Positions 1,134 through 57,002 of a stretch of 57,002 nt of DNA are shown piece after piece. The position numbers and the translations under genes are program-made. Position 1 is the first letter of the stretch; each line of letters starts with the position of its first letter. The notes beneath the pieces are model-generated. The model saw only the letters and a program-made list of their open reading frames with translations. It was not told the origin of the DNA and searched no databases. The DNA is from a virus (taxonomy: Duplodnaviria; Caudoviricetes), in the IMG/VR virus record IMGVR_UViG_3300020045_013711, positions 1 through 57,002 of that record; one strand, 5' to 3'.

Positions 1134-1885
1134 GGTTTAAAAATTACAATCATACTGTCTTTTGTTCCGCTTTGAGTTTTTCCTTTAGAATTTAATGGTA
1201 AATAAAAATTACCATTAGCATCTATTTTACCAAACTTTATTCTACCTTTTACAAATTCAATCTCACTTGCATTTGGTTTGATCCATTCGTGAAATAATTT
1301 TGTGCTTGTTGATACAGGTATAAGAAAAACAGAAACTCTGCAAGCTACAATTTCATACTTTTTAGGCATTAATTCTGATTTCAGATACAATGGATGTTTT
1401 GGCGTTCCATCGTTCGACAAATCAATATAATGTAGGTTTTCAATTCCTTTTAACGGCTTGTAGTTTTCTCCAAATTTTTTACCCAATTTATTTACAATAG
1501 GAGCATTTCCCCAAGCACAAACTATCATCTCAGATTCTTTCGCCATAAAATCAATATGCCATTTATTTAACAAACCCATTGGTTCTTTAGTATTCAATAA
1601 TTCTTTTGGATTTGTAGAACGATAGGCGAATAAGTTTCCAACACATAAAGAACCAAAACCCCAATTCTTTGCAAATCCAATACATCGTCTAATTGTAGCA
1701 TCATCTATATTTGCATCAGCAGTTGATGGGTTTAGCATTAAGAACATAACTCTTGGTTTTGTTTCATCCCATTTTCTTTCAAGAGAATAACGGTATTTTT
1801 CACAATCCGAAAGAACAGCACTACGGCTAACAGCCATTTGGAGCGATTGGGAATTTGTGTTTTCTGAATTATTATTTTGTGTCAT
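1130..1885 (-). CDS. DUF1643-family protein fused to the C-terminal fragment of a phage adenine MTase
   Basis: YRYSLERKWD, MLNPSTAD, VGNLFAYRST, CAWGN and PKHPLY motifs; tail LIPVSTSTKLFHE...KDSMIVIF closely resembles ORF 10655..11086; likely start MTQ at 1885. Confidence 0.7.
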   Translation of the reverse strand: MTQNNNSENTNSQSLQMAVSRSAVLSDCEKYRYSLERKWDETKPRVMFLMLNPSTADANIDDATIRRCIGFAKNWGFGSLCVGNLFAYRSTNPKELLNTKEPMGLLNKWHIDFMAKESEMIVCAWGNAPIVNKLGKKFGENYKPLKGIENLHYIDLSNDGTPKHPLYLKSELMPKKYEIVACRVSVFLIPVSTSTKLFHEWIKPNASEIEFVKGRIKFGKIDANGNFYLPLNSKGKTQSGTKDSMIVIFKP

Positions 1886-1955
1886 AATGATGGTTTTTAT
1901 AGTTAATGATTTCGATTTTTTAGCCCCAACCACACCAAGTGGCAAAACGTTATAG
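1825..1955 (+). repeat. attC-like site A
   Basis: GGCTAAC; arms gccatttggagcgattggg / cccaaccacaccaagtggc; GTTATAG at 1949. Confidence 0.85.
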
Positions 1956-2203: not shown

Positions 2204-2204
2204 C

Positions 2205-2771: not shown

Positions 2772-2773
2772 TT

Positions 2774-3169: not shown

Positions 3170-3202
3170 AATTTCTATTATGTTTAGATTTCTATACCGT
3201 AA

Positions 3203-3255: not shown

Positions 3256-3348
3256 ATTTTTATTTCCCTTTATTTTACAAGGTTTTTAGAGTAAAAATAA
3301 TTTTATCTAATTTCCAAAATTTCAAAGAACGTGGTGCAAATTGCCTGC

Positions 3349-3438
3349 CCATAACCTATGCTACTGGCAATTTGCAGAACTCCCTACTATTATTCACGTT
3401 ATGTGGTGGCAAACTGCCAGTAGCATCTGCCGTTATCG
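3349..3438 (+). repeat. attC-like site B (short class)
   Basis: TGCCCATAAC pairs with opener GTTATAGGCA (1949, one mismatch); arms atgctactggcaatttgc / gcaaactgccagtagcat; GTT at 3432. Confidence 0.9.
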
Positions 3439-3798: not shown

Positions 3799-3825
3799 TT
3801 TGTTTGTGGTTAAAAAAAGCCGAAA

Positions 3826-3963
3826 CGATAACAATTTCTTTGCGATGATTTTCGGCTTGGTTTATAAATTTTTTTATTGTTTTGTGTCTGTTTTGCTTGG
3901 GTCTTAATCCGAAGCTTGGTTTTGTGCAACTCCGAAAAACCTCGCAAAGAATCAACGTTATAA
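3826..3963 (+). repeat. attC-like site C
   Basis: AACGATAAC pairs with GTTATCGTT (3432); arms ttctttgcgatgattttcgg / ccgaaaaacctcgcaaagaa; GTT at 3957. Confidence 0.9.
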
Positions 3964-3976
3964 GCAATTGTAACAA

Positions 3977-4204
3977 CTACTCGGTTAAATGAAGTGAACA
4001 TAATCTAAAATGATGTATTTTATCAAATCGAATTTTATTTTCATCTTTTAATAAATGATTGTAATAATCTTTGTTGTAAAATTTACAGGTTTCTTTTTTC
4101 GAGCAAATTTCAACTCCTTTTTTAAAATTATAATACTGTCCAGAACAACTGCTTATAACATCGTGTATAATAGATTGCTTGTTTGGGTCTGTGTTTTCAG
4201 GCAT
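3977..4204 (-). CDS. Cys-containing hypothetical protein (cassette cargo)
   Basis: 75 aa; start codon inside attC D loop. Confidence 0.6.
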   Translation of the reverse strand: MPENTDPNKQSIIHDVISSCSGQYYNFKKGVEICSKKETCKFYNKDYYNHLLKDENKIRFDKIHHFRLCSLHLTE

Positions 4205-4286
4205 CTGTTTTTAATTTAATGATTGGTAATTTTTGGAGGTATCAGGTTTAATCGGCGCAACCTCTTATACACGCCGTCCGTTACTA
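4153..4286 (+). repeat. attC-like site D
   Basis: TGCTTATAAC pairs with GTTATAAGCA (3957); arms cgtgtataatagattgc / gcaacctcttatacacg; GTT at 4280. Confidence 0.9.
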
Positions 4287-4697: not shown

Positions 4698-4721
4698 ATT
4701 GTTTGGTGTTAAAAACACAGC

Positions 4722-4855
4722 TAGTAACACATAATTGTAGCAATAGCTGTATGGTTTTTGCATTTAATGTTTTGCGTTTTCTTGTTTTTATCAGTTTTTA
4801 ACCGAATGATAATTTTGTGTCAGCACGCTACTGCTACAATTATCCAACGTTACCT
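4722..4855 (+). repeat. attC-like site E
   Basis: AGCTAGTAAC pairs with GTTACTAGCT (4280); arms ataattgtagcaatagc / gctactgctacaattat; GTT at 4849. Confidence 0.9.
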
Positions 4856-4876
4856 GCAAGTGCTATATTCGTGCTT

Positions 4877-5584: not shown

Positions 5585-5616
5585 AAGATATTTTGTTTTA
5601 AACAAGCCACACCAGC

Positions 5617-5748
5617 AGGTAACAAGTGCTTGAAGAAATGGCTTTATTTGTTTTTAATTTAAAGATTAGTTTTTGTCTGTGATGTCTGTTTTTAATTAGA
5701 TGATTTGGCGTACTTGCACGCCACTTCGTCAAGCACCATACGTTATGG
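5617..5748 (+). repeat. attC-like site F
   Basis: GCAGGTAAC pairs with GTTACCTGC (4849); arms gtgcttgaagaaatggc / gccacttcgtcaagcac; GTT at 5742. Confidence 0.9.
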
Positions 5749-5749
5749 G

Positions 5750-6172
5750 CTATGCAGTTGGAACGGCATAGCTTTGTTTTATATATTTCATCAATAAATT
5801 TTGATTGCTAGAAATCCTTGGATTATAATCAAATCTGATAAAATCAACCAAATTCACTTCTTCGGAAATAGAAATAAAATCTTCTAATGAAATTGTTTTT
5901 ACAAAATCGGCTTTATCCATTCTTAAAGAATAAGTACCGTCTTCTTTGTATTTTTTTATTCTACATTCAATATCAATTACAGTTTGAATTTTATTATTGA
6001 AATGTCCGCTTTGAAGTTCCCAAAAACAGCAGTCGATATCAATCCCAAATTTATCTTCAAAAACTGCAAATGAATCAACACTTAATTTTTGATTTTCAGG
6101 TAATTCAATAGCTAAAAATTGTTCTAATTTTTCTTTTGAAACTTTCTTTACTTTGATGTCTTGTATTTTCAT
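5750..6172 (-). CDS. hypothetical protein (cassette cargo)
   Basis: 140 aa ORF filling the cassette. Confidence 0.7.
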   Translation of the reverse strand: MKIQDIKVKKVSKEKLEQFLAIELPENQKLSVDSFAVFEDKFGIDIDCCFWELQSGHFNNKIQTVIDIECRIKKYKEDGTYSLRMDKADFVKTISLEDFISISEEVNLVDFIRFDYNPRISSNQNLLMKYIKQSYAVPTA

Positions 6173-6205
6173 TTTTGATAATTTTAGTTACCGAAAAAGC
6201 ACAGC

Positions 6206-6340
6206 CCATAACAAGTGATATGAGCGATTTTCGGCATCGTGATTATTGATTTATTGTTTTGTACTTGGTTTGTTCTGTGACAGCGGAAGGATTACGGCTT
6301 ACTACTCCGAAAATCCGCACATATCACTGAACCGTTATCA
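6206..6340 (+). repeat. attC-like site G
   Basis: AGCCCATAAC pairs with GTTATGGGCT (5742); arms agtgatatgagcgattttcgg / ccgaaaatccgcacatatcact (one bulged C); GTT at 6334. Confidence 0.9.
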
Positions 6341-6341
6341 C

Positions 6342-6554
6342 TCATTTTATAGAACGTTTGCTGATAACGAGTTCAGATTTCCGAATGATGCAAATTTCAT
6401 TCTCAAAAGGCGTTTCAAAATTCCATCTATCAAGCGTATATTTTGAGATTCCGATTTCGTGAGTATTGCATAATATTGTTAAATCCCCGTAATAAAAATG
6501 CTTTTCGTTTTCGAGTGCATTTTTAAATTCAATGTGAAATAGTTTTTTATTCAT
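6342..6554 (-). CDS. hypothetical protein (cassette cargo)
   Basis: 70 aa ORF. Confidence 0.6.
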   Translation of the reverse strand: MNKKLFHIEFKNALENEKHFYYGDLTILCNTHEIGISKYTLDRWNFETPFENEICIIRKSELVISKRSIK

Positions 6555-6670
6555 TTTTTTTTATTTTAATAAAAGAAAGGTTTTCGCCTATATTTACTTT
6601 TATATGTTTTTCAATAAAAGGTTTACAATTCTGAACTTCAACTAATTTGTTGCTTTTCCTTTCTTTAAAT

Positions 6671-6883
6671 TTAAACTTTTATTTTGCTAAGTTCTTTTTT
6701 TACTCTGTCACGATATATTTTAAAAAACTCTATGTTGTTATCTATAAAATCTTTAGACTCTGTTCTTTTATCTGATTCCCAATAATCAACTGCGTTTTCA
6801 GTATAAGGAAGTATATTTCTTAATCTATACTCCCCTAATTCTTCATAAATACTTGGTATTTCAGGCTGTTTAAATTTTGACAT
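6671..6883 (-). CDS. hypothetical protein (cassette cargo)
   Basis: 70 aa ORF, coupled to upstream stop. Confidence 0.6.
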   Translation of the reverse strand: MSKFKQPEIPSIYEELGEYRLRNILPYTENAVDYWESDKRTESKDFIDNNIEFFKIYRDRVKKELSKIKV

Positions 6884-7155
6884 TATTTTTTGAAGTTTTT
6901 AAATTCTTCTTCTGTCATTTTTTCAAGTCTTGATTTCAATTCATTTTGATTTTCAATTCCTGATCCAAATCCTTCTATAAATAAACATTTGAACGCTTCT
7001 AATTTTTTGCTTTTGCTTAATTTAGAATATCTCACAAATCCTAAAGAATAGGTTTTTTCAATTTTAGCATTTTCTTCTTTAGTTCCGAAAATCTCAGTCA
7101 ATCCATTTACAATTGCTTCTGCTCCGTTTCTGTCTGTGTAGTAAGTAGTTTTCAT
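6883..7155 (-). CDS. hypothetical protein (cassette cargo)
   Basis: likely start MKTTYYT at 7155. Confidence 0.65.
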   Translation of the reverse strand: MKTTYYTDRNGAEAIVNGLTEIFGTKEENAKIEKTYSLGFVRYSKLSKSKKLEAFKCLFIEGFGSGIENQNELKSRLEKMTEEEFKNFKK

Positions 7156-7177
7156 AATTTCTATTTGTTTGATTTTG

Positions 7178-7209
7178 TTATACAAATATAGTGATTAATA
7201 TTTGTATAA
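7178..7209 (-). promoter_or_regulatory. cassette-internal Bacteroidota -7 promoter (TATATTTG) inside a 12-bp inverted repeat
   Basis: ttatacaaatat-N8-atatttgtataa; caaatata at 7183-7190 is TAnnTTTG on the minus strand. Confidence 0.6.
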
Positions 7210-7265
7210 ACCTAATTAAATTACAAAAATAAATGTTAAAATTTGTAAATGAATAAAAAAACGAG

Positions 7266-7362
7266 TGATAACACGTGCTATGAGCAATATTGCCTATAAC
7301 GTTTAGTGCTACACGACAACTTTTTTCTAAGGCAATACTGCACATAGCACTATCCGTTATCA
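7266..7362 (+). repeat. attC-like site H (short class)
   Basis: GAGTGATAAC pairs with GTTATCACTC (6334); arms gtgctatgagcaatattgcct / aggcaatactgcacatagcac; GTT at 7356. Confidence 0.9.
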
Positions 7363-7368
7363 GGAATA

Positions 7369-7572
7369 CTACGATTGTGGTTTTAAAGATGATTTTAATA
7401 CCATATCATATTCTTCCGGCATTTGAACTAATGGTGTTTGTTTTGAGAACATCGCAAGTATATTTTGTAACAACTCGTTTTGTTCTTTTGAAATACCTAA
7501 TTGTATTATTCTATCTCCTTTTTTCATAATAAGAGCAATATTTCCTTCTTTTTGTTCTTCAAATGTTGCCAT
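7369..7572 (-). CDS. hypothetical protein (cassette cargo)
   Basis: 67 aa ORF filling the cassette. Confidence 0.65.
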   Translation of the reverse strand: MATFEEQKEGNIALIMKKGDRIIQLGISKEQNELLQNILAMFSKQTPLVQMPEEYDMVLKSSLKPQS

Positions 7573-7602
7573 AACATATTTAGTTTTAAATTTCCGTACT
7601 CC

Positions 7603-7738
7603 TGATAACAGTTGCTATAAGAGATTTTCGGTATTGTTTATTAATCGTTTTATTTGTGTGTATTTGCGGTGATTTGGCAAAGCGGAAAGATGGTTTTATA
7701 TTCATCCGAAAATCCTCACATAGCACCAACCGTTAGTA
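7603..7738 (+). repeat. attC-like site I
   Basis: TCCTGATAAC pairs with GTTATCAGGA (7356); arms tgctataagagattttcgg / ccgaaaatcctcacatagca; GTT at 7732. Confidence 0.9.
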
Positions 7739-7744
7739 GCCATT

Positions 7745-8179
7745 TTAATAGCCATCTGCTCTAAATTCAAATTTTTCAAGTTCATTGTATTTATCCCAAA
7801 CCGCTTCAAGTTCTATTTGGAAAACTTCTACAATTTCAATTCTTCTTCTTTCAAAGATTGGTTTGAGTTGTAAAAATGCTTTTGGATAAAGTTGTTCAAA
7901 GTCTCCATACCACATTGCTCCACAAGTCAAATCTTTATTATCAACCATATCAATATATTTTTCATCAAACCATTCATAACCATAGGATTCTTTACTTAAT
8001 TTAGGTTTTGATTTAAAAAAGACGATACAATTATAATGACCTCCGTATATTCCTGCCCAAACTTTTCTAATAGATAATTTTGGAGGTTGAAATTCTGCTT
8101 TCACCACAAAACGGCTACTAACAGCCATTTGGCAAGATTGGGTATCAGGCTTGTCTGAATTATTGTCTTGTGTTTTCAT
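7745..8179 (-). CDS. hypothetical protein (cassette cargo)
   Basis: 144 aa; start inside attC J loop. Confidence 0.7.
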   Translation of the reverse strand: MKTQDNNSDKPDTQSCQMAVSSRFVVKAEFQPPKLSIRKVWAGIYGGHYNCIVFFKSKPKLSKESYGYEWFDEKYIDMVDNKDLTCGAMWYGDFEQLYPKAFLQLKPIFERRRIEIVEVFQIELEAVWDKYNELEKFEFRADGY

Positions 8180-8248
8180 TGTTTAGTTTTTAAGTTAATG
8201 TTTAGGATTTATTTACCCCAAACTACCACAAGTTGCAGGACGTTATGC
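8116..8248 (+). repeat. attC-like site J
   Basis: GGCTACTAAC pairs with GTTAGTAGCC (7732); sequence related to site A; GTT at 8242. Confidence 0.85.
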
Positions 8249-8270
8249 AGGATTGCTACATTTTCGTTTC

Positions 8271-8558
8271 TTAACAAAAATTAGCAATATTGCTAGTAAT
8301 TATATAATGTGATTTACAAGGAAAATTATAATTGCCTACAGAACCAATTAAAGATATTTTTTTACCATCAGAACTCTTCACAATTTCCCAGTTTCTTCCA
8401 CCGCCCAAGGGCGTTATTGTTTTTAATCCACAACCGCATAAGCAATTATGAGTTGCTGTTTTATATTTTTCGGATATGTATAATTTATTTTCCTCAATTA
8501 CTTCTGGAATGACATCGACAAATACAGGTTCAATTGTTACTTTTTTAATCGTTTTCAT
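8271..8558 (-). CDS. Cys/His-rich protein, DUF6527-like (cassette cargo)
   Basis: LYIS..Y.TATHNCLCGCG...SVGNYNFPCKSHY. Confidence 0.7.
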   Translation of the reverse strand: MKTIKKVTIEPVFVDVIPEVIEENKLYISEKYKTATHNCLCGCGLKTITPLGGGRNWEIVKSSDGKKISLIGSVGNYNFPCKSHYIITSNIANFC

Positions 8559-8590
8559 AATAAAATTTAGTTTTAATCATCCACAACCCC

Positions 8591-8724
8591 GCATAACAGT
8601 AGTCTTGAGCTAGTGGCAGTTGGTTTTGTATCCGAAAAGACTCGGATAGTATTAATTATTGTTTTATTTTTGTTGGCACTTATCTTGAATCGAGCCACCA
8701 GCACAAGGCTACAAAACGTTATCA
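8591..8724 (+). repeat. attC-like site K
   Basis: CCCGCATAAC pairs with GTTATGCAGG (8242, one mismatch); arms gtagtcttgagctagtggc / gccaccagcacaaggctac; GTT at 8718. Confidence 0.9.
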
Positions 8725-9084
8725 CTCAGCTTGTGAGCAACTTTGTGTTGAAAGAATTTTAATGGCATTTATTAGTCCATATTCTAAAGCATCTTCATAT
8801 TTTGAAAACAATTCTCCATAACCGTAATTACAATATTTTTCATCATCAACATTATTGATGGAAGTGGTAACACACACATCATATATTACTGGATGATTAT
8901 TTTGACTACTAAATTGATGTGATATTAATACATCTGTATTTTTTTGTTCTCGCAACCATTTTTGTAAAACAGATTGTGTTGGTTTTACTTCATAACATAT
9001 ACATTCAGTAAATCCTCCACAATTACAAGTTTTTAAATCAAAACCTATATTTTTTGCTAATTGAAATGTTTTATCAGAAATCAT
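8722..9084 (-). CDS. hypothetical phage protein (cassette cargo)
   Basis: 120 aa; PTQSVLQKWLRE...YEDALEYGL. Confidence 0.7.
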   Translation of the reverse strand: MISDKTFQLAKNIGFDLKTCNCGGFTECICYEVKPTQSVLQKWLREQKNTDVLISHQFSSQNNHPVIYDVCVTTSINNVDDEKYCNYGYGELFSKYEDALEYGLINAIKILSTQSCSQAE

Positions 9085-9108
9085 AATTTTGCGTTTAAAA
9101 AGCCGAAG

Positions 9109-9241
9109 TGATAACAGCTAGTATATTTCAGCTTGGCATCAGGCTTGATTAATAATTGATTTTGTGTCAGATTTATGGTTTCCCAACCGAAAGATTTGGC
9201 TTACTTGTCCCAGCCGAAATTATACTAGCGAACCGTTAACC
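9109..9241 (+). repeat. attC-like site L
   Basis: AGTGATAAC pairs with GTTATCACT (8718); arms gctagtatatttcagct / agccgaaattatactagc (one bulged T); GTT at 9235. Confidence 0.9.
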
Positions 9242-9607
9242 GTAATTCTCGTAACTATAGTCAATAAAAAGCTCTTCTTCTAAATCAATTTTAAATTGAA
9301 AACCATATCCCCAATGATTATCTCCGTTTTCATTAGCATTATTTCCACTTTCTGAAAATTCTACCCATAAATGACCTTCTGATAACCAGTTTGATAAAGT
9401 TAAATCATCAATTGTATCGCTTGTATCTGTTTGAAGTTCTTTAAAATCATAATTTAACGCTGTATATAATTCCTTTGCAAAATTATATTCTTCATCATTT
9501 TCTTTTAGATATTCTTCATAACTTTCTTGTGTCGGAAATTCTTTTAAATGATTAAGTTTTACTTTATTAAATATCTCTCTGTAATCTATAAAATCAACTA
9601 ATTGCAT
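9236..9607 (-). CDS. hypothetical acidic protein (cassette cargo)
   Basis: 123 aa; TAA stop lies in the GTTA box. Confidence 0.7.
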   Translation of the reverse strand: MQLVDFIDYREIFNKVKLNHLKEFPTQESYEEYLKENDEEYNFAKELYTALNYDFKELQTDTSDTIDDLTLSNWLSEGHLWVEFSESGNNANENGDNHWGYGFQFKIDLEEELFIDYSYENYG

Positions 9608-9617
9608 AATGAACTAC

Positions 9618-9751
9618 GGTTAACAGCTACTACAAAACATTTGGGTAACTGTGATTAATTAAAAAATAGTTTGTACCTGTTTTAATTCGTGAGTACTCGA
9701 ATATTTTAGCTTCCTTAATCCCAAACGATTTGTAGTAGCAAAACGTTACCA
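9618..9751 (+). repeat. attC-like site M
   Basis: TACGGTTAAC pairs with GTTAACCGTA (9235); arms gctactacaaaacatttggg / cccaaacgatttgtagtagc; GTT at 9745. Confidence 0.9.
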
Positions 9752-9757
9752 GTAATG

Positions 9758-9985
9758 CTACCCTCGCATACGGTTAACTCGAATTTGTAAATTTTCACGC
9801 TCTTCAAATAATTCACAAAGCCGTTTATTAAAATCATTATGACTACTTCCTTCTTTGGCTGTAACGTTTAATTCTTGCAATCCATTTAGTTTAATAGTTT
9901 CTCCTTTTTGAAGTCTATAAAGCATATCAATTGAACCGTTTATGATGTCAATTTTATTTTTCATATTTATTAAAAGTCTATTCAT
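9758..9985 (-). CDS. hypothetical protein (cassette cargo)
   Basis: 75 aa ORF filling the cassette. Confidence 0.65.
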   Translation of the reverse strand: MNRLLINMKNKIDIINGSIDMLYRLQKGETIKLNGLQELNVTAKEGSSHNDFNKRLCELFEERENLQIRVNRMRG

Positions 9986-10020
9986 TTTGATAAATTTAGC
10001 ATCCGAAAAAAAAGCACTAC

Positions 10021-10156
10021 TGGTAACAAGTGATATGAGCGATTTTCGGCATTGTGATTATTGATTTATTTTTTTGTACTTGGTAATATTATTTTGTGGC
10101 TGAAATATTGGCGATTCCTACTCCGAAAATCCGCACATATCACTGAACCGTTACCT
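10021..10156 (+). repeat. attC-like site N
   Basis: TACTGGTAAC pairs with GTTACCAGTA (9745); arms identical to site G; GTT at 10150. Confidence 0.9.
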
Positions 10157-10162
10157 GCTATG

Positions 10163-10576
10163 CTACCAATGAACTTCAAAGGGCATTTGTTCTATAATCT
10201 GTTTTCCAATTGGAATTGATAGGATTATATTTTTAAAGTCTTTAAAATCAATTTTTTCTTTTGTCCAAAAAACAGATTTTGTTCCACTTCTATTGTCTTT
10301 ACAACTCCCAGAAATTCCACAAATATAATATCCATCAATTTCTAAATAAGTTATTAATCCTTTGCCTGTATATGGTGGTACAATATCTTCTGGACTAAAC
10401 GGCAAATCTCTAAACCAAACTTTACTTTTCAAAAGCCTTTCTTTTTGCAAAATCCAAAAATAATGCCCTGCACTCGTTAAGTCTGTTCCAAAGTAATCAA
10501 GCACAGCAGGTAACAGCGGTTTTGTGCTATTGCCTAATTCGTCTTGAACCTTATTATTGTTTTGTTCTTCAATCAT
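10163..10576 (-). CDS. hypothetical protein (cassette cargo)
   Basis: likely start MIEEQNN at 10576, inside attC O loop. Confidence 0.7.
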   Translation of the reverse strand: MIEEQNNNKVQDELGNSTKPLLPAVLDYFGTDLTSAGHYFWILQKERLLKSKVWFRDLPFSPEDIVPPYTGKGLITYLEIDGYYICGISGSCKDNRSGTKSVFWTKEKIDFKDFKNIILSIPIGKQIIEQMPFEVHW

Positions 10577-10641
10577 TTGTCTTAAATTTAAAGTTTTAGG
10601 TGTGTTTTTAGGCAACATCACAAAGCCACGAACCGTTAGGG
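10508..10641 (+). repeat. attC-like site O
   Basis: AGCAGGTAAC pairs with GTTACCTGCT (10150); arms gcggttttgtgctattgccta / taggcaacatcacaaagccac; GTT at 10635. Confidence 0.9.
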
Positions 10642-10654
10642 CAAATAGCTCTAT

Positions 10655-11086
10655 TTAGTTTTTCAGAACAACTATCATACTATCGTGCATCCCGCTTTGT
10701 TTTGGTGTATAGATGTTTCCGTTTTCGTCAAAAGTTCCAAATCTTAATCTACCTTTTACGAATCGAATATCTTTTGCGTTTGGCAAGATCTTTTCGTGAA
10801 ATAATTTTGTTGAAGTACTTACCGGAATAAGCAAAACACATACATTCCCTTTTTTGCTTTCTTCAATTGCTCTATCAACAAAAGCTTCTTTTAATTTTCG
10901 GGAATAAGGAGGATTAATAAAATTAGATTTCCCCCATTTTATCAACAATCCATCTTTATCACTTGTAATTTTTTCTTTGTTCAGCGGGCAAGGGTCAAAA
11001 TCAAAATTAAATTCAGCATTCAATTCATCATAAAATTCTTTTGGAGTAGCCCAATTGTCTGAGTGATCTAAATTTCTATTTTTCAT
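10655..11086 (-). CDS. phage DNA N6-adenine methyltransferase (cassette cargo)
   Basis: DNWATP, FDFDPCP, FINPPYS motifs of the short phage Dam family. Confidence 0.85.
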   Translation of the reverse strand: MKNRNLDHSDNWATPKEFYDELNAEFNFDFDPCPLNKEKITSDKDGLLIKWGKSNFINPPYSRKLKEAFVDRAIEESKKGNVCVLLIPVSTSTKLFHEKILPNAKDIRFVKGRLRFGTFDENGNIYTPKQSGMHDSMIVVLKN

Positions 11087-11289
11087 AATTTATTAAATAT
11101 TCGTCTAACAAAATATCCTCTTACAATGCTTGTAATAAAAAACACAGCGGTAATAATTAGATTTTGAGAAAATGTTACAGGAATATTTAATAATGGATAA
11201 ATAATAGCCTGTATTAATATTGAAGTCAGTAACCCGATTATCGTTTGAGATACGCTTTCTATTATTGAATGTTTTTTGGTTTGTTTCAT
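11083..11289 (-). CDS. small membrane protein (cassette cargo)
   Basis: MKQTKKHSIIES, two hydrophobic helices, RGYFVRRIFN. Confidence 0.7.
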   Translation of the reverse strand: MKQTKKHSIIESVSQTIIGLLTSILIQAIIYPLLNIPVTFSQNLIITAVFFITSIVRGYFVRRIFNKL

Positions 11290-11320
11290 AACAACTTTTT
11301 CGTTAAAAATTCACTACTTG

Positions 11321-11411
11321 CCCTAACATATGCTACAAGCTATATGCACGGCTTTAGTTTTTCAGTTCATATTTATTGCTGGCATACAGCTTGTAGCATC
11401 CGCCGTTATCG
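11321..11411 (+). repeat. attC-like site P (short class, last in array)
   Basis: TTGCCCTAAC pairs with GTTAGGGCAA (10635); arms atgctacaagctatatgc / gcatacagcttgtagcat; GTT at 11405. Confidence 0.9.
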
Positions 11412-11510
11412 CCAATACTACAATCTTTTTCTATTAATAATCAATACTCCAATCAATAGAATTACAGATATTAATACCCCTAAGTCATTTATTACATTTT
11501 GTATCATAAT

Positions 11511-11720
11511 CTAGTTACTTTTAATAATCACCTGATCCATTTTAAAAACCCCTGTTCTCCTTATTTTATCGCCATTGAATTCTACTATAAAAATAGAATC
11601 ATTCACTATTTTAAAGTCGTTTGTGTAGAAATTACCGTTTGGAGTAATTATCTTGTAGTTTGTAGCGTAGTGAACTTTGCAACCTACGCATAAAATGAGT
11701 ATTAGTATTAATTTTTTCAT
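11511..11720 (-). CDS. putative lipoprotein
   Basis: MKKLILILILCVGC lipobox-like signal; start 11720. Confidence 0.6.
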   Translation of the reverse strand: MKKLILILILCVGCKVHYATNYKIITPNGNFYTNDFKIVNDSIFIVEFNGDKIRRTGVFKMDQVIIKSN

Positions 11721-11753
11721 TTTGTTGATTTTAATTATTGTTATTTCAATACT

Positions 11754-11825
11754 CAAATGTATAAAATATACATTTACAAAAAACATTTATTTTTGTTTTA
11801 TGGTTAATTTATATTGATTATAAAT
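11754..11825 (-). promoter_or_regulatory. promoter (TACATTTG) facing the cassette array, with TGTAT-N5-ATACA operator and 19-bp palindrome
   Basis: caaatgtataaaatatacattt at 11754-11775; atttatattgattataaat at 11807-11825. Confidence 0.65.
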
Positions 11826-11828
11826 AGC

Positions 11829-11856
11829 AAAAACCCCGAAACAATTCGAGGTTTTT
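11829..11856 (-). terminator. intrinsic terminator after portal
   Basis: aaaaaccccgaa / ttcgaggttttt. Confidence 0.65.
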
Positions 11857-11874
11857 ATAATAAGCTAAATATTT

Positions 11875-13308
11875 TTATACTGTTGGTATTGGTGATTCTT
11901 CAACAGGATTCTCTTTTTCTATTTTTTCAATTTCAGAATCAATATCAGAAACTAATCCTAATAGTTTAACTCTTGTTTCCATTGACATAGATTTTGATGA
12001 AGAACCATTCAATGCAATTGTACTGTTTTGTTCTAAATCAACCGGCAGAATAGAATTGAATTTAATATCAATTACTAAGTCATTTGTTTGAGTTTTAGAT
12101 TTAACATTCACAACTCCGGTTATTCCAGATATTAAAATATTAATTATTCGCTCTACAATAGTTCTGTTTTGACCTTCATTCATTTTTGCCTTAATGATCG
12201 GGTCTAAAAACATTAATTTTAATGCTACTCCAGATATAGCCCCGATGCTTTTCATTTTTTCAAAAGAAATATCAGGCGTTTGTGTCATTGAAAATATAAG
12301 TTCTCTAATAGTTTCCATTTCCAATTTAACAGCTTCAGGTGCGTTATCATTGGTTAAAAACTTAGCATCACCATTATAAGGTTTATTAACATCTTCGTCT
12401 TTAAATTTAATTGGAAAATTGATTGTTTTTCCATCATCATTCATTTCTGGCAATATATTTAAATCGCCATAAGTTAATAAAATTGGATGGCCTGAATAAT
12501 CATTTGAAACTCCTAATTTAGATAAAGCAACTTCATAACGGTCAATCAATAATTCAACATCAAACCATTCTGGATATTGTTGCTGCATGTAAACAATTGG
12601 AATTCTATCAAATCCATGCGGTTCTGTATTATTTAATTTAAGAGTTCCTGATTCATCGCTAATTTTATAAACATTAATTTCATCAAATACCCAAGTATTA
12701 TTAATATCCTTATCTTCTGAATTTTTAGTCACAAATTGCCATGTAAAAGCTTTCATGTCATTTGTAGCATCAAAATAAGGAAACATCAAACCCTCTTTTA
12801 AAGTCAAGACATTTGACCTAATATCTTTAGCTTTACTTGCTCCTGGTTGTTGAGTTACTTTTGTGCCTGTTGATGCTTTACGTATAAAAAAATGAATAGC
12901 ACATTCAGTTTCAGTTTTCTGAATTGTTTTTGCTTTTTGAAGTTTATCATCCATTCTATTTGATTTCCATAAACGGATAAGTTCTTGGAATAAATCATTA
13001 TCCTCGCTTGGAGTTAAAGTTACCGGCTCCCCAACTTCAAAAGCGGCCGATGTTGTAACAATCTTTTTTGCATAATTAACAGGTGAACGAATCGATTTAA
13101 CTACTCTTTGTTTATCTCCGGTTCCAATAGTTTTATCTTTCTGAACATTTCCTACTTGAGTTGGCCTAATCGTTCTATCAAGTTCATTATATTCTTTAAC
13201 ATAAGTTTCAATAACTGAATGATCTTTACCCTGACTTGTAAGTTTTGAAATTACTTTATCCAATTCTGGACTATTTACGATTTCTTTTATCGTTGATTCT
13301 TCTTCCAT
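11875..13308 (-). CDS. phage portal protein, SPP1 gp6-like
   Basis: 477 aa after TerL; PHGFDRIPIV, LIDRYE, TPDISFE, SGVALKLMF. Confidence 0.9.
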   Translation of the reverse strand: MEEESTIKEIVNSPELDKVISKLTSQGKDHSVIETYVKEYNELDRTIRPTQVGNVQKDKTIGTGDKQRVVKSIRSPVNYAKKIVTTSAAFEVGEPVTLTPSEDNDLFQELIRLWKSNRMDDKLQKAKTIQKTETECAIHFFIRKASTGTKVTQQPGASKAKDIRSNVLTLKEGLMFPYFDATNDMKAFTWQFVTKNSEDKDINNTWVFDEINVYKISDESGTLKLNNTEPHGFDRIPIVYMQQQYPEWFDVELLIDRYEVALSKLGVSNDYSGHPILLTYGDLNILPEMNDDGKTINFPIKFKDEDVNKPYNGDAKFLTNDNAPEAVKLEMETIRELIFSMTQTPDISFEKMKSIGAISGVALKLMFLDPIIKAKMNEGQNRTIVERIINILISGITGVVNVKSKTQTNDLVIDIKFNSILPVDLEQNSTIALNGSSSKSMSMETRVKLLGLVSDIDSEIEKIEKENPVEESPIPTV

Positions 13309-19652: not shown

Positions 19653-19685
19653 GATTTTTAATTTTAATTGTTTTATTAAGTTTTT

Positions 19686-19704
19686 CAAATGTATAAAATA
19701 TACG
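19686..19704 (-). promoter_or_regulatory. promoter TACATTTG with TGTAT-N5-ATAC operator
   Basis: caaatgtataaaatatacg. Confidence 0.6.
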
Positions 19705-19862
19705 TTAATCTTTTTCGTCTAATTCAAAATTATCAGTAATTTGTTTTGATTCTAAATAAAGGATTTCGATAAAATGATAGGTGATAACTTTAATATTATG
19801 CTTAACCTTAATTTATTTCTTTTCTTCTTTGGTCTTATTCCTCCAAAACTTTAATTGCTCGG

Positions 19863-28334: not shown

Positions 28335-28368
28335 TGTTTTTAATTTTTAGTTATTTTTTAATTATAAA

Positions 28369-28430
28369 CAAATGTATAAAATATACACTTATGTTTGACA
28401 AATCAATCTTAATTTATATTGATTCTTAAT
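28369..28430 (-). promoter_or_regulatory. promoter TACATTTG with TGTAT-N5-ATACA operator and 19-bp box
   Basis: caaatgtataaaatataca at 28369; atttatattgattcttaat at 28412. Confidence 0.6.
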
Positions 28431-32373: not shown

Positions 32374-32444
32374 CAAATGTATAAAAAATACATATACGAA
32401 TGTATAAAAAATACATTTAAGCTTAATTTATAATCATTCAAAAT
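32374..32444 (-). promoter_or_regulatory. early-operon promoter with two TGTAT-N5-ATACA operators and 19-bp box
   Basis: caaatgtataaaaaatacat (32374), aatgtataaaaaatacattt (32399), atttataatcattcaaaat (32426). Confidence 0.65.
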
Positions 32445-52061: not shown

Positions 52062-52120
52062 ACATGGAAACATTTTTTAATTACTGTTTCCTTCTCTAAA
52101 GTCTGCTTTCGCTATAGTTG

Positions 52121-52191
52121 CGCAAAAGAAAGGATTCGAACCTCTAACTATGGTTTTGGAGACCATTGTTTTACCATTAAACTACTTATGC
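52121..52191 (-). tRNA. tRNA-Trp (CCA anticodon)
   Basis: GCATAAG/CTTTTGC acceptor (one U-U), D arm GTTT/AAAC, anticodon arm ATGGT-CTCCAAA-ACCAT, T arm AGAGG-TTCGAAT-CCTTT; promoter TATATTTG at 52198-52205. Confidence 0.9.
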
Positions 52192-53127: not shown

Positions 53128-53928
53128 TTATACTGGTAAATTTAGTTTAGATAAAGAAGCTGTTGAAACATGACAATAAATTTCAGTAGTTTTTACATTG
53201 GCATGACCTAGGTGCTGTTGAATGTATCTAAGATCAGTTCCAGCTTCTAATAAAGCCGTTGCGTTTGAATGTCTAAGAATATGCATATGATATTCTTTTC
53301 CAATATATTTCTTTACTAATTGGTTACAGCTAGTTTCGCTATATTGATTTGAAAACTGTCCATTAAATAAATATTCTTTTGGTTGGTATTCAGTAAAATA
53401 AATCCTAAGAAGTTCCAAAACTTTTTGACTTAACGGAACAATTCTGTCTTTATTGCCTTTTGAATTTCTAATAAAAATTATCATGCGTTTGCTGTCAATA
53501 TCAGCTATCAAAAGATTAATTACCTCAGATACTCTCATTCCTGTTGAATAAGTCATTGTGAGCAACGCTTTATGTTTGGTATTGGTTATTTTATCCAATT
53601 GCGATAATAGAAACTCCTTCTCAATTATTTTAGGTAACTTTTTTTCCGACCTAGGATATTTTATATATTTAAACTTCATAGGTTGCTTTACAACCATTTC
53701 ATAAAATAATTTCAAAGCCGAAATACTATGAGCCATTGAGTTCCTTGTCTTGAATTGTAATAACCAATTTTTTATAGCTGTTTCATTTATTTTTGAAGGC
53801 TCAGTAAATTGTTCTTGGTTTCGTAAAAATAAATCTACTTGTGCTGAATAGTTTTTAATAGTATTCTCAGCATAATTTTTTAGAGTTAACTCTTTCCGAT
53901 ACAATTCAAGGTACTTAGGAATATTCAT
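53128..53928 (-). CDS. tyrosine recombinase, candidate cassette integrase (no IntI-specific insertion)
   Basis: N-terminal NYAENTIKNY SAM-like domain; YSTGMRVSE, KGNKDR, HILRHS, LGH, TTEIY catalytic residues intact. Confidence 0.92.
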   Translation of the reverse strand: MNIPKYLELYRKELTLKNYAENTIKNYSAQVDLFLRNQEQFTEPSKINETAIKNWLLQFKTRNSMAHSISALKLFYEMVVKQPMKFKYIKYPRSEKKLPKIIEKEFLLSQLDKITNTKHKALLTMTYSTGMRVSEVINLLIADIDSKRMIIFIRNSKGNKDRIVPLSQKVLELLRIYFTEYQPKEYLFNGQFSNQYSETSCNQLVKKYIGKEYHMHILRHSNATALLEAGTDLRYIQQHLGHANVKTTEIYCHVSTASLSKLNLPV

Positions 53929-53929
53929 G

Positions 53930-53990
53930 GTATTAAGTATTAAGTTTATTGATGTTCACACATTTTTAGCACATATAGTAGTTATAGGCA
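53930..53990 (+). other. attI-like primary recombination site (G/TT at 53981)
   Basis: GTTATAGGCA opens cassette 1 but has no attC palindrome upstream; 53 bp from the integrase ATG; gtattaa-gtattaa direct repeat at 53930. Confidence 0.75.
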
Positions 53991-53999
53991 ATACTACGA

Positions 54000-54704
54000 T
54001 TACCATAACGTGAGTTGATTTTTATAATCGACAAATCTTTTTTCTTGATTTTCAAAATATGTAGGATCAAGTTCTGAAGCAGTAAAATCTAATTTTGCTT
54101 TATCAGCCGATATTCTACTACTTCCTGATCCTAAATGTGTATCAAGTATTTTATCGCCTTCTTTTGCAAAGTTTTTAAATATCCAGTCATATAGCTTTAC
54201 AGGTTTTTGCGTTGGGTGTATTCTTTTTTCTTTGTCTTTCATATCGTGTTGTATCATTCCGTGCCAGGCAATTTTAACCGATTTAATGCTGTTTAATAAA
54301 GAACAGTAAGCAAGTTCGCCATCGCTATAAGTTGGCATTGTGACACATTTGTCCCAATAAATTCTGCCTCCAGATAAAAAGTCAAATGGGTAATAATTTA
54401 AACCCCAAATTATTTGTTGTTTAGATACTCTAAATAATTCATCAAAATATTCTTTGGTCGGTACATCGGCATCCCATTTTTGCTCTCCGTATTTTTTTGA
54501 TTTGGAAGCGCTTTTTTTACTTTGTTTTTTATCTGTACTATTTTTAACGTCAGCATTAATTCCGTAAGGCGGGTCAACTACTGCTAAATCAAAATAGTTA
54601 TCGGGGTATTGCTTCATTAATGCCACACAATCCATTAAATAAACCGTACTGCCTATAACAGTGGTTTGAAGCAAGTGGGCATCGGTCTTTAATTCATTAT
54701 TCAT
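54000..54704 (-). CDS. DNA N6/N4 amino-methyltransferase, beta class (first cassette)
   Basis: DLAVVDPPYG, IHPTQKPVKLY, ILDTHLGSGS. Confidence 0.9.
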   Translation of the reverse strand: MNNELKTDAHLLQTTVIGSTVYLMDCVALMKQYPDNYFDLAVVDPPYGINADVKNSTDKKQSKKSASKSKKYGEQKWDADVPTKEYFDELFRVSKQQIIWGLNYYPFDFLSGGRIYWDKCVTMPTYSDGELAYCSLLNSIKSVKIAWHGMIQHDMKDKEKRIHPTQKPVKLYDWIFKNFAKEGDKILDTHLGSGSSRISADKAKLDFTASELDPTYFENQEKRFVDYKNQLTLW

Positions 54705-54784
54705 TTTGTACTTGGATTAATAGTTTATAATTTAATGTTTGGGGCTTATTTCCCCCACCTGCGTCAAGCCACGAAACGTTATAA
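54653..54784 (+). repeat. attC-like site 1
   Basis: TGCCTATAAC pairs with GTTATAGGCA (53981); arms gtggtttgaagcaagtggg / cccacctgcgtcaagccac; GTT at 54778. Confidence 0.9.
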
Positions 54785-54788
54785 CTCA

Positions 54789-55070
54789 TTATACCACCTG
54801 ACGACTATTCTCTTCATCGACAACTTTTATAATCGGAGTTTCATAAACGTGTAATCCAGTAATCGTATTTCCATCATCTAAGAATGTGATGTTTGTAACG
54901 ACCTGAGTTTTATTTTTGCTTTTCTGAACAACTCCAATCCATTTATGATTTTCGCCATCAAAACTTCCATTATCCATTTCAAAGTTTGCAGTTTTCAAAG
55001 CGTTGGATAAAATTTGTCTTAAATTAGTTTCTTGTAATTGTCCTTCTGAGTTTTTAAAATATAGTTCCAT
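54789..55070 (-). CDS. hypothetical protein (cassette cargo)
   Basis: 93 aa ORF filling the cassette. Confidence 0.7.
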   Translation of the reverse strand: MELYFKNSEGQLQETNLRQILSNALKTANFEMDNGSFDGENHKWIGVVQKSKNKTQVVTNITFLDDGNTITGLHVYETPIIKVVDEENSRQVV

Positions 55071-55082
55071 AAAAATAACGAG

Positions 55083-55214
55083 TTATAACAATGCATTGTA
55101 GCTATTATTGCATTGTTTTTTGATTTATAATTCAGTTTGTATTTGTTATAATTTGTGTTTAATCGAAGCATTGTTTTGTCCTTTCAATAACAGCGACAAT
55201 GCTCAACGTTAGCC
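55083..55214 (+). repeat. attC-like site 2
   Basis: GAGTTATAAC pairs with GTTATAACTC (54778); arms gcattgtagctattattg / caataacagcgacaatgc; GTT at 55208. Confidence 0.9.
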
Positions 55215-55219
55215 GTCAG

Positions 55220-55462
55220 TTAAACAAATGGAGTAATCTGATTTCTTTTAAACCACCAACTTTTAGTGTGAAATTGTTCTTCAGGCATATCTCTATATTT
55301 ATAAACTACAACTTCTATAATAGTTCCTTTTTTAAACAATAATTTTGGTTTTTGATTCCAAGATTTAGGTATGTCTTGATAAATATCTTTGTTTACAATA
55401 TATTTCCCTAAACATCCATATTTTTCACGTTCAGACCATGCGATTTCTTTTGAACTTTCCAT
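55220..55462 (-). CDS. hypothetical protein (cassette cargo)
   Basis: 80 aa ORF. Confidence 0.65.
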   Translation of the reverse strand: MESSKEIAWSEREKYGCLGKYIVNKDIYQDIPKSWNQKPKLLFKKGTIIEVVVYKYRDMPEEQFHTKSWWFKRNQITPFV

Positions 55463-55466
55463 GTTC

Positions 55467-55988
55467 TTATTTTAAATTATTTGGAACACTCTCTAAATCT
55501 TTACATTTAAAAAAATTAAGAGTTTTTTCATCATTTTCAAAAAAAACACCTACATTTTTCGCATTTGATAAATCAATATTTTCAATTTTACGAGTCCAAA
55601 AACCCATTCTTGAATCAATTCCTAAATGAAAAGAATATGGATAACTGCTATAAGTATATGCATGTTCTTTTTTAGAATAAGGATTTATTTCTCCTGTTGG
55701 ATAAACAGTTACTTTATCATCAGGAATAGATACAGCAACGATTGTAGCTTTGTAAGATTTTTTACCTATTACAAAATCAACTTCAAAGCCAATAAGATTG
55801 TTTAATTTTTCAAATTTCAACCTATCTTCATTACTTAGTTTTAATGCGTTTTTATAAGCTGTTTTGTTTGGTGCAGAAAAACTGCCCTCCCATTTATATT
55901 CATCAGTATAACCATAATCATATTCCGTAACCGAACGGCTAACAACCGCTTGCTTTTCAGCTTTTTTATTTGTGATTTCTGTTTTCAT
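55467..55988 (-). CDS. hypothetical protein (cassette cargo)
   Basis: 173 aa; start inside attC 3 loop. Confidence 0.7.
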   Translation of the reverse strand: MKTEITNKKAEKQAVVSRSVTEYDYGYTDEYKWEGSFSAPNKTAYKNALKLSNEDRLKFEKLNNLIGFEVDFVIGKKSYKATIVAVSIPDDKVTVYPTGEINPYSKKEHAYTYSSYPYSFHLGIDSRMGFWTRKIENIDLSNAKNVGVFFENDEKTLNFFKCKDLESVPNNLK

Positions 55989-56071
55989 GGTCTGTATTTT
56001 TTAGTATTTGTTATTAGGTAAATATGGTTTTGTGTTTTTTCAAGCCGAAAAACAAGCGACAAACGTTATGA
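55937..56071 (+). repeat. attC-like site 3
   Basis: ACGGCTAAC pairs with GTTAGCCGT (55208); arms cgcttgcttttcagctt / aagccgaaaaacaagcg; GTT at 56065. Confidence 0.9.
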
Positions 56072-56088
56072 GTAAGCTATTTAGCAAC

Positions 56089-56331
56089 TTAATACATATC
56101 TAAATTTGCCGAAATATCATCTCTAATATCGCTTATTATCTTTTTTAAATTTTCTTCTCCTTCGGTGTCTTTTTCAAATTCAAAGGAGTAAAAATTAGTT
56201 GTCAAATCATATTGTAAAATAGGCTTTTTTAATTGAGCTAATTTTGCCAATTCATTCATAAAAGGCTCAGCTCTTTTTAAGAAATCTTCTTTTGCTCTTC
56301 TTAATTGTTCGGATGTTGCAGTTGTATTCAT
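56089..56331 (-). CDS. hypothetical protein (cassette cargo)
   Basis: 80 aa ORF filling the cassette. Confidence 0.65.
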   Translation of the reverse strand: MNTTATSEQLRRAKEDFLKRAEPFMNELAKLAQLKKPILQYDLTTNFYSFEFEKDTEGEENLKKIISDIRDDISANLDMY

Positions 56332-56355
56332 AATTATTGTGGATATCTAGCCTAC

Positions 56356-56487
56356 TCATAACAACAGCTACATTTCAGCGTTTTATTGGTGATTAATTTG
56401 ATTATATTTTTGTGCTTCAATCATTCGGCAAATCCGAGGAATTGTCTGTGTTTGACCACGCCGAAATTGTAGCTGCGGCCGTTAGGG
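56356..56487 (+). repeat. attC-like site 4
   Basis: TACTCATAAC pairs with GTTATGAGTA (56065); arms cagctacatttcagcg / cgccgaaattgtagctg (one bulged T); GTT at 56481. Confidence 0.9.
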
Positions 56488-56500
56488 ATAACCGCCTATG

Positions 56501-56764
56501 TTAGCCCTTAAATTCAGGTAAAATTCCTAAATAGAAAAATTTACCATTAATACTATTTACAGTCATATATGTGAACACTTTTTTGCCTTTATGATTTTCA
56601 AAAGAATCACAAGCGTCACCGCCCTGCTGGGCATATTCACTTGAATAATGAGTTGGCACACATTCTAAAATATTAAGATATAATGCTTCATCTATTTCAC
56701 AAGGTTCGTTTAGATATTTATCCATATCTAAATTTGATTTTTTCCAATTTTTTAATGTTTTCAT
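56501..56764 (-). CDS. hypothetical protein (cassette cargo)
   Basis: 87 aa ORF filling the cassette. Confidence 0.7.
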   Translation of the reverse strand: MKTLKNWKKSNLDMDKYLNEPCEIDEALYLNILECVPTHYSSEYAQQGGDACDSFENHKGKKVFTYMTVNSINGKFFYLGILPEFKG

Positions 56765-56797
56765 AATTTAAAATTTGATTAATAATTCGTGGTATAT

Positions 56798-56889
56798 CCC
56801 TAACAGCGTATATAAGAGATACGCTAGACGTTCAGTTTTTCAGTTTATATTTTGGGGCGGCGTACCTCCCATATACGCAACCGTTATAG
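56798..56889 (+). repeat. attC-like site 5 (short class)
   Basis: TATCCCTAAC pairs with GTTAGGGATA (56481); arms gcgtatataagagatacgct / ggcgtacctcccatatacgc; GTT at 56883. Confidence 0.9.
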
Positions 56890-57002
56890 CACATTGCTAC
56901 ATTTACGTTTTTATAAGTTAATTTTTCAACTCTATTTCTGGTTTTTTATTACCTAAGTAATTACATTTAAGATATTTTAATTCTAACGCTTTACCTTTTC
57001 TT

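Follow-up and report, generated by a model that had tools for sequence, protein, structure and literature searches.

Can a phage recombinase without the signature helix of integron integrases serve an array of gene cassettes bounded by hairpins? The question is raised by int, a gene on the minus strand (53128..53928) of the IMG/VR record IMGVR_UViG_3300020045_013711, whose 57,002 bases, rated 100% complete and with about 30% G+C, were analysed in full and are referred to here as the window. According to the accessible text of Escudero et al. 2020 (PMC7790495), it was by acquiring the I2 helix that a Xer-like enzyme became able to recombine folded single strands, and a viral origin of integrons is speculated on. 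An initial annotation of the window, made from the letters alone, proposed that int encodes a cassette integrase of a separate lineage that lacks this IntI segment. We find an array of 21 hairpin sites next to int, an attI-like box between the two, and similar arrays beside int homologues in many unrelated phages. We put at roughly 70% the probability that int encodes the dedicated site-specific recombinase of a phage-borne, integron-like gene-capture platform, and we infer that Int catalyses recombination of the hairpins and handles them by a mechanism other than that of IntI.

The 266-aa product of int is a simple, two-domain tyrosine recombinase by its motifs, Pfam domains, alignment and AlphaFold2 model. 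Pfam assigns an N-terminal SAM-like domain and a Phage_integrase catalytic domain (8.3e-36); an arm-binding domain is not among its matches. All six catalytic residues (R132, K160, H216, R219, H242 and Y251) are present, are invariant across 52 aligned family members and, in phmmer comparisons against solved structures, align with the catalytic motifs of XerA and XerD. The motifs KGNKDRIVPL, EYLFNG and HILRHS start at residues 157, 185 and 216; their order and the protein length agree with the initial annotation, while the gap between the first two is 18 residues and not about 17. In the AlphaFold2 model (pLDDT 92.7), the protein folds as a canonical two-domain recombinase, and helix H168-181 is followed by H198-208 without an additional one between them. 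XerA heads the Foldseek matches by E-value; IntI4 is matched with a TM-score of 0.77-0.78 over 317 columns, and the Brujita Int (5vfz) is also among the matches. The best phmmer matches are archaeal XerA (4a8e, 5hxy) and XerD. The XerA alignment is collinear, whereas IntI4 (2a3v) aligns in two pieces, query residues 10-174 and 209-259, between which lie 34 residues of the query and 82 of IntI4. Int thus resembles XerA, XerC and XerD in its simple two-domain build, similar length, collinear alignment and lack of an I2 helix.

The missing segment can be located by counting residues between conserved motifs, using IntI1 and IntI3 from plasmid records, three chromosomal IntIs from the host phylum and four host Xer proteins. 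From the KDR motif to the LF strand there are 24 residues in the int product, 55 in all five IntIs and 30-32 in the four Xers; from the LF strand to HxLRH there are 29, 45 and 34, respectively. The IntIs hold a 31-residue insertion between KDR and LF, inside which ALERKYP lies in IntI1, and 16 extra residues before HxLRH. The IntI insertion therefore consists of two main pieces, both of which are absent from the int product and its relatives. A regular-expression count from KGxKxR to HxLRH, which left out 17 rows without one of the motifs, agrees: the spacing is 53 in the int product, 52-59 in 73 proteins of the phage family and 53-60 in 22 genome homologues, against 100 in 12 of 12 IntIs and 66 in four XerD-like proteins. 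Overall, the int product is about 24% identical to IntI1. Its NCBIfam matches fall under every IntI and Xer cut-off: XerA_Arch scores 184.8 bits (cut-off 220), XerD 163.4 (329.6) and XerC 162.9 (335.15), followed by the integron integrase model TIGR02249 at 147.4 bits (265), matched in two stretches, and the IntI equivalog NF011946 at 86.4 bits (435). Both statements of the initial annotation on this point, that the signature insertion is lacking and that IntI-specific models would miss the protein, are borne out by these figures.

Phylogeny places the protein in a lineage of its own, as had also been proposed. In a careful mixture-model tree of 57 sequences, the bootstrap of which had not fully settled, the int product falls in a phage clade of 19 rows (support 100/99), and both the canonical IntI clade (100/100) and the host XerC/D clade (100/100) exclude it. 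The int product is neither an IntI nor a host Xer. The backbone branches that join the IntI, XerC/D and phage clades have supports of 21-65, and two quicker trees differ on this backbone. A sister relation of the int family to IntI, with a support of 89 in a quick LG+G4 tree, is absent from the mixture-model trees and was discarded. Two groups of relatives stand apart. A subgroup of chromosomal homologues (L090, L094, L100, L102, L107, L109 and L113; 324-334 aa) is longer at the N-terminus than the phage proteins, by a conserved stretch of about 60 aa. Genomes of Acidobacteriota (L114-L160) carry multiple copies of recombinases at 37-41% identity, and a single assembly accounts for 7 of the 79 loci listed; these recombinases cluster with IntI at 82/94 in the mixture-model tree, no hairpin arrays accompany them, and they may be insertion-sequence-like elements.

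Directly upstream of int lies the attI-like box (53971..53984, plus strand), which reads ACATATAGTA-GTTA on the plus strand and TAAC followed by TACTATATGT in the sense of int, its TAAC beginning 56 nt upstream of the int ATG. With at most 3 substitutions allowed, the conserved form, TAAC followed by TAYTATATGT, recurs in 58 of the 77 homologous loci, most often 55-56 nt from int, and most of the other loci have more diverged versions, judged by eye. Conservation is confined to the int-proximal half of the box; the distal half differs from cassette to cassette, and the sequence upstream of the TAAC is unrelated between loci. The box marks the border between a conserved int module and variable cassettes.

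Beyond the box, the gaps between the small genes of positions 1,800-11,400 contain hairpins that run from TAAC through stem, loop and stem to 5 nt and GTTA. On the plus strand their plan is TAAC, 1-3 nt, a stem with a conserved mismatch and a bulge, a loop, the returning stem, 5 nt and GTTA. An alignment of 14 hairpins has 13 consensus pairs, 12 of them with compensatory changes, and a covariance model built from it was used to search the window with filters off. It finds 21 sites, all on the plus strand and all in one array, with hits within 54651-57002 and 1-11413; the lowest site scores 38.4 bits, and the next score in the window, 20.8 bits, is the reverse strand of a true site. An Rfam search of the window returned a tRNA only and no family that matches the hairpins. 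Because the array spans the ends of the record, a circular or permuted genome is implied, although the record is classed as 'linear'.

Counted from int, the sites before the record end are site 1 (54656..54781, 66.9 bits), site 2 (55086..55211, 76.9 bits), site 3 (55940..56068, 40.4 bits), site 4 (56359..56484) and site 5 (56801..56886). The array continues from the other end of the record with site 6 (1828..1952), site 7 (3352..3435), site 8 (3829..3960), site 9 (4156..4283), site 10 (4725..4852), site 11 (5620..5745), site 12 (6209..6337), site 13 (7269..7359), site 14 (7606..7735), site 15 (8119..8245, 39.4 bits), site 16 (8594..8721, with the lowest score), site 17 (9112..9238), site 18 (9621..9748), site 19 (10024..10153) and site 20 (10511..10638, 65 bits), and has its distal end at site 21 (11324..11408). 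Sites 5, 7, 13 and 21 form a short class.

Each cassette comprises one small gene, sometimes a few, and one imperfect hairpin. The open reading frames (ORFs) of the cassettes all lie on the strand of int and point towards it and, given a crossover at the plus-strand GTTA, each hairpin lies 5' of its gene. The array ends 723 nt from int, and the sole gene in between encodes an N6/N4 DNA methyltransferase (54000-54704), which forms the first, attI-proximal cassette (53985..54781, minus strand) together with the hairpin that overlaps the start of the gene. The cargo of the array includes three DNA methyltransferase families, a DUF1643 protein and a helix-turn-helix (HTH) protein. A perfect 23-nt inverted repeat (1992-2014 and 3305-3327) brackets a multi-gene unit that includes an HTH_3 protein (2205-2771).

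The ends of these units carry a signal of their own. When the last 10 nt ahead of each TAAC are compared with the first 10 nt that follow the GTTA one site earlier, they pair at a mean of 7.95 of 10 positions, and at 6 or more in 19 of 20 comparisons, whereas the two flanks of the same site pair at 3.1 of 10 and unrelated pairs at 3.0 (sd 1.5). The pairing breaks only across 56886-57002/1-1828, where the 5' flank of site 6 matches the 3' flank of site 5 at 1 of 10 positions; several ORFs lie in that gap, and a site or boundary may be missing between 56886 and 1828. At the other extreme of the array, the 10 nt after the GTTA of the attI-like box pair at 9 of 10 positions with the 10 nt before the TAAC of the first hairpin. 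Such pairing of cassette ends is the mark of units that entered as circles, through a crossover in the GTTA/TAAC box, with the box beside int as the point of entry.

If int serves the array, its homologues should be found beside similar arrays, and this was the co-occurrence on which the initial annotation had staked its proposal. We sampled 80 viral loci with int homologues at 45-94% identity. All 232 hits of the covariance model lie upstream of int, 231 of them on the opposite strand, and none were found in the 653,237 nt searched downstream, compared with 489,645 nt searched upstream. An independent scanner that uses only the two boxes and the stem energy gives 289 sites upstream and 20 downstream (5.9 versus 0.31 per 10 kb), the downstream rate being equal to its false-positive rate in the rest of the window. 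At least one site is present in 64 of the 65 viral loci with at least 1 kb of upstream flank, and the exception has only a partial gene. Close homologues without arrays, the outcome that would have spoken against the proposal, are thus not what was found. Nor are the loci copies of one phage: when the genes downstream of int are compared across 70 loci, they sort into 33 clusters without a common protein at E = 1e-10, and the window has none in common with any of these clusters. By these sequence comparisons, the association of int with the array is very strong and goes beyond shared ancestry.

Comparisons between related phages point to the box as the place where cassettes come and go. Homology between such phages starts 55-65 nt upstream of the int ATG, and the loci L010 and L038 have both flanks in common, yet carry 4 and 9 sites. 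The clearest case is a pair of Polaribacter phages, Freya_1 and Freya_10, which are 100% identical on one flank and 99.7% on the other and differ by about 4.9 kb. The additional stretch, 12 small genes in Freya_10, is inserted exactly at the box, between CAAC and ACCCC, 48 nt upstream of the small recombinase gene. Because the ends of the first cassette pair across the box in the window and the Freya isolates differ by whole cassettes at this point, the box beside int is the cassette insertion point. The covariance model is weak on the cultured relatives, which are 33-35% identical (Leef_1 30.2, Ingeline_1 24.4 and Freya_10 23.7 bits); their sites are too diverged for it, and the Freya comparison was used instead. 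In the phages Freya_1 to Freya_10 (L179, L203-L205), all from one host strain, the recombinase starts between positions 71 and 4168 of genomes that are otherwise near-identical.

The association extends to bacterial genomes. Homologues of int at 40-46% identity occur in many Bacteroidota, several of them with the gene flipped and the array downstream (10 sites in L096 and 4 in L100, for instance). For a broader test, 40 candidate hairpins were scored in each of 80 genomes of the phylum, the orientation of a site being taken from the strand of the covariance model. The small-recombinase family (E <= 1e-55) is present in 27 of these genomes, a canonical IntI match (E <= 1e-40) in 26, all but one above the family cut-off, and at least one hairpin hit in 24. 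Of the 27 genomes with the family, 10 gave three or more hits, as did 2 of the 53 that lack it (odds ratio 15, p = 2e-4); for canonical IntI, the counts are 4 of 26 genomes with and 8 of 54 without one (odds ratio 1.0). By coordinates read by hand, 11 of the 13 genomes with both hits and the small recombinase have hits no more than about 25 kb from that gene, while hits lie near a canonical intI in 0 of 8. A large chromosomal array, on contig 12 of one genome (G017, 207062-228147), comprises 24 or more sites over about 20 kb, the first of them 770 nt from a recombinase of the family, and no canonical IntI match was found in that genome. Many metagenome-assembled contigs (L091, L092, L094, L101, L102, L104, L107, L113 and others) stop 150-1000 nt past the recombinase gene, as if assembly had broken in repeated cassette arrays.

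Several observations weigh against a dedicated cassette recombinase, and three of them open the way to other explanations. The first concerns lysogeny. Int is the only tyrosine recombinase in the 57-kb window, in which no serine recombinase was found either, and the small recombinase is likewise the sole tyrosine recombinase in 10 of 12 near-complete viral records. In such single-recombinase phages, int could also, or instead, serve integration or dimer resolution. Int might then be a Brujita-like simple integrase that establishes lysogeny, with the box as the core of attP and the array as an adjoining 'moron' region; armless simple integrases do integrate phages according to the accessible text of PMC8138268, and the Brujita Int is among the fold matches. 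Several relatives, however, have a large lysogeny integrase in addition. In a Flavobacterium urumqiense prophage, the int homologue, the box and a hairpin lie in the middle of a co-linear block of phage genes, and a 403-aa integrase with an Arm-DNA-bind_5 domain sits at the end of the block. (The same prophage has a masked run of N at L083 7893-9382, between copies of a direct repeat of about 70 nt.) In Ingeline_1, a 398-aa integrase lies next to the lysogeny regulator and the small recombinase precedes the structural genes; Leef_1 has an extra 157-aa ORF annotated as an integrase besides its small recombinase, and 8 of 34 viral records carry a second recombinase of 388-437 aa above the Pfam cut-off. 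Activity as a prophage integrase only, the outcome named in the initial annotation as contrary to its proposal, is therefore not the pattern in these phages. With the pairing of the first cassette across the box and the cassette-wise difference between the Freya isolates also against it, we regard the lysogeny explanation as very improbable.

A second objection is that arrays and recombinase can be separated. Polaribacter phage P12002L has sites of the same design, and a homologue of the recombinase was not found in it (best tblastn E 0.033); according to the accessible text of Qi et al. 2023 (PMC9892861), IntI1 recombined one P12002L attC in Escherichia coli. Arrays can therefore persist without int, and canonical IntI can use such sites. 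Moreover, 11 of the 53 genomes without the small-recombinase family still had at least one hairpin hit. Int could accordingly be a Cre- or Xer-like resolvase of multimers that acts at the box, while the cassettes are moved by a canonical IntI of the host or by XerC/D hijacked as in CTXphi. The best family and structure matches of int are indeed Xer recombinases, canonical IntI is common in the phylum (90 of 301 genomes), and the use of a folded hairpin by XerCD is established for CTXphi in what PMC7790495 makes available. Yet conservation of only the int-proximal half of the box fits the product of an attI x attC reaction rather than a symmetric resolution site, and in the 80 genomes the hairpin sites track the small recombinase and not canonical IntI. 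In a smaller comparison, hairpin model hits were found in none of five genomes with a canonical IntI, and none of five genomes with int homologues had an IntI match above the cut-off. Division of labour between a resolvase and a host enzyme is in our estimate unlikely, if less so than a role in lysogeny.

The third objection lies in the hairpins themselves. With DNA parameters, the complementary, gene-sense strand is the more stable one in 264 of 305 sites. Because that strand folds more stably, either strand may be the one that recombines, and a role of the hairpin in RNA is conceivable. On the plus strand of the model an isolated A.C mismatch is conserved in the stems, with 333 A.C/C.A against 76 G.T/T.G over 309 sites from all loci, in a tally restricted to isolated internal mismatches so that A/C positions beside the TAAC and GTTA boxes do not inflate it; the mismatch is either a recognition mark, or else the other strand or an RNA is the folded form. 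One could then see in the hairpins intergenic RNA structures, for termination, processing or stability, or else miniature inverted-repeat elements, brought near int by conserved synteny. The A.C mismatch becomes a G.U or G.T wobble on the gene-sense strand, and miniature inverted-repeat elements are described in the accessible text of PMC11602168 as common to Flavobacterium genomes and viruses. Against this, the sites are strictly co-oriented, number about one per gene and form one array that ends at int; their stems covary, unlike those of recent copies; each unit has a private complementarity of its ends, offset by one unit; and the downstream contexts are unrelated (33 clusters), with indels that are cassette-precise. 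Of the alternatives this seems to us the least credible, with hardly any probability attached to it.

Two more general objections apply to a dedicated cassette recombinase. The link between Int and the array is guilt by association. The I2 helix, in turn, is held to have enabled single-strand recombination (in the text available from PMC7790495); an enzyme without I2 would need another way to recognise a folded site or to avoid a second exchange.

How, then, might a recombinase without I2 act on these sites? In the sense of int, the layout is the cassette array, the attI-like box (TAAC followed by TACTATATGT), 56 nt and int. The hairpin would fold when its DNA is single-stranded or extruded as a cruciform; TAAC would pair with GTTA in a short duplex (the 'R box'), separated by an asymmetric internal loop from the 'L box' that the stem provides. 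Folded in this way, the hairpin would look like a core site with two arms, to which a simple Xer-type recombinase could bind as a dimer. Int would then cut in the AAC/GTT triplet and exchange strands with the double-stranded attI-like box beside its own gene, thereby inserting or excising cassette circles. The asymmetric spacer (1-3 x 5 nt) and the conserved stem mismatch may supply the polarity that is given in IntI by extrahelical bases and I2. There is a precedent in CTXphi, where a hairpin folded so as to resemble duplex DNA can be a substrate for a Xer enzyme, according to the accessible text of PMC7790495.

The system we propose is integron-like by analogy: it has a recombinase, an insertion site and a hairpin-bounded array, with sites of a distinct type. 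As in integrons, int is read away from an adjacent attI-like box that carries a GTT/AAC crossover triplet, single-gene cassettes are separated by imperfect hairpins conserved in structure and not in sequence, the cassette ends imply circular intermediates, and the cargo includes orphan DNA methyltransferases. Unlike IntI, Int has no I2/ALERKYP insertion, scores below the IntI cut-offs and lies outside the IntI clade. The polarity is also reversed: the cassette genes point towards int and the hairpin stands in front of its gene, whereas in integrons the genes point away from attI, share a common promoter and have attC at their 3' end. The spacer between R box and stem is asymmetric, again unlike that of integron sites. 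That a folded strand recombines, as the bottom strand of attC does in integrons, may be read only indirectly, from the covariation of the stems and the asymmetry between the strands.

Other known recombinases differ in other respects. Unlike the Xer proteins, Int falls below the XerA, XerC and XerD cut-offs and outside the host XerC/D clade, with 24 instead of 30-32 residues from KDR to LF, and it is encoded by phages or accessory regions beside cassette arrays instead of being a housekeeping partner of dif and FtsK. The Brujita-type Int (5vfz) is likewise a short two-domain phage recombinase, but that type integrates its phage, whereas related elements have a large integrase besides the small one, and the site next to int serves cassette insertion. 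From the arm-binding integrases of phages and of integrative and conjugative elements (ICEs), Int differs in having no N-terminal arm domain, and the F. urumqiense homologue is internal and not at the prophage border. Simple recombinases as a class are treated by Smyshlyaev et al. 2021, as far as the accessible text of that classification goes.

Integrons and integrase-less attC clusters (CALINs) in phages are reported by Qi et al. 2023 (PMC9892861), whose accessible text mentions no Xer-like enzyme and nowhere contains 'Flavobacteri'. The methyltransferase region of P12002L contains short TAAC...GTTA hairpins of the same design as those of the window; unlike such CALINs, the window array comes with its own recombinase and attI-like box. 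The accessible text of IntegronFinder 2.0 reports few integrons in complete Bacteroidetes genomes. We found no earlier description of the int/array system in the literature, and the supplementary tables of PMC9892861, which cover 17 CALINs, could bear on prior art.

The wider setting of int is that of a phage genome, in which 54 of the 56 ORFs of at least 100 aa in the window lie on the minus strand. The closest cultured-phage relatives of the int product are the small 'integrases' of Polaribacter and Cellulophaga phages (33-35% identity), and the closest bacterial copies, at 69-72%, are in Flavobacterium. Because these are its nearest protein relatives, the source is a phage of Flavobacteriia. 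A megablast search of window 34000-57002 against phages gave a 108-nt methyltransferase stretch as its sole match; this part of the window therefore has no close sequenced relative. The tRNA is a tRNA-Trp (CCA) at 52120-52191 on the minus strand (Rfam, 69.8 bits), about 940 nt downstream of int and ahead of the head genes, and no tRNA gene was found in the 12 related loci scanned. A repeated motif around CAAATGTATAAAATATAC (family D5) occurs outside the array and upstream of gene blocks, at 11749-11781, 19681-19713, 28364-28396 and 32392-32424, and may be a promoter or operator.

Traces of the array are also present in public sequence data. In 20 runs from 9 studies (19 labelled wastewater metagenome and 1 freshwater), each run contains 7-15% of the words sampled from the array (window 1-12000), and none contains half of them, which fits lone cassettes or sites circulating in other contexts. 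Many joints beside hairpins were seen in contigs of 4 runs; their shorter sides measure 18-32 letters at 90% likeness, too short to prove such circulation, and they were not used as evidence.

A phage recombinase that lacks I2 and is wedded to hairpin cassettes challenges the I2-centred view of cassette recombination. We see about even odds that the I2 helix is unnecessary for cassette capture via folded hairpins, and that Bacteroidota and their phages harbour a widespread integron-like class with a minimal Xer-like recombinase and the opposite cassette polarity. Such a platform may have been invented independently, or it may represent a state before I2, carried by phages, that gave rise to integrons, and it makes the ideas on I2 and on a viral origin testable. 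The family is common: 27 of the 80 genomes sampled from the phylum have it, and so do at least 33 phage backgrounds unrelated to one another. Because integron searches require the IntI-specific segment, these arrays are invisible to them, so that they are missed or, as for P12002L, filed as integrase-less attC clusters. For the phages themselves, the three DNA methyltransferases in the cargo suggest a route by which anti-restriction genes may be exchanged.

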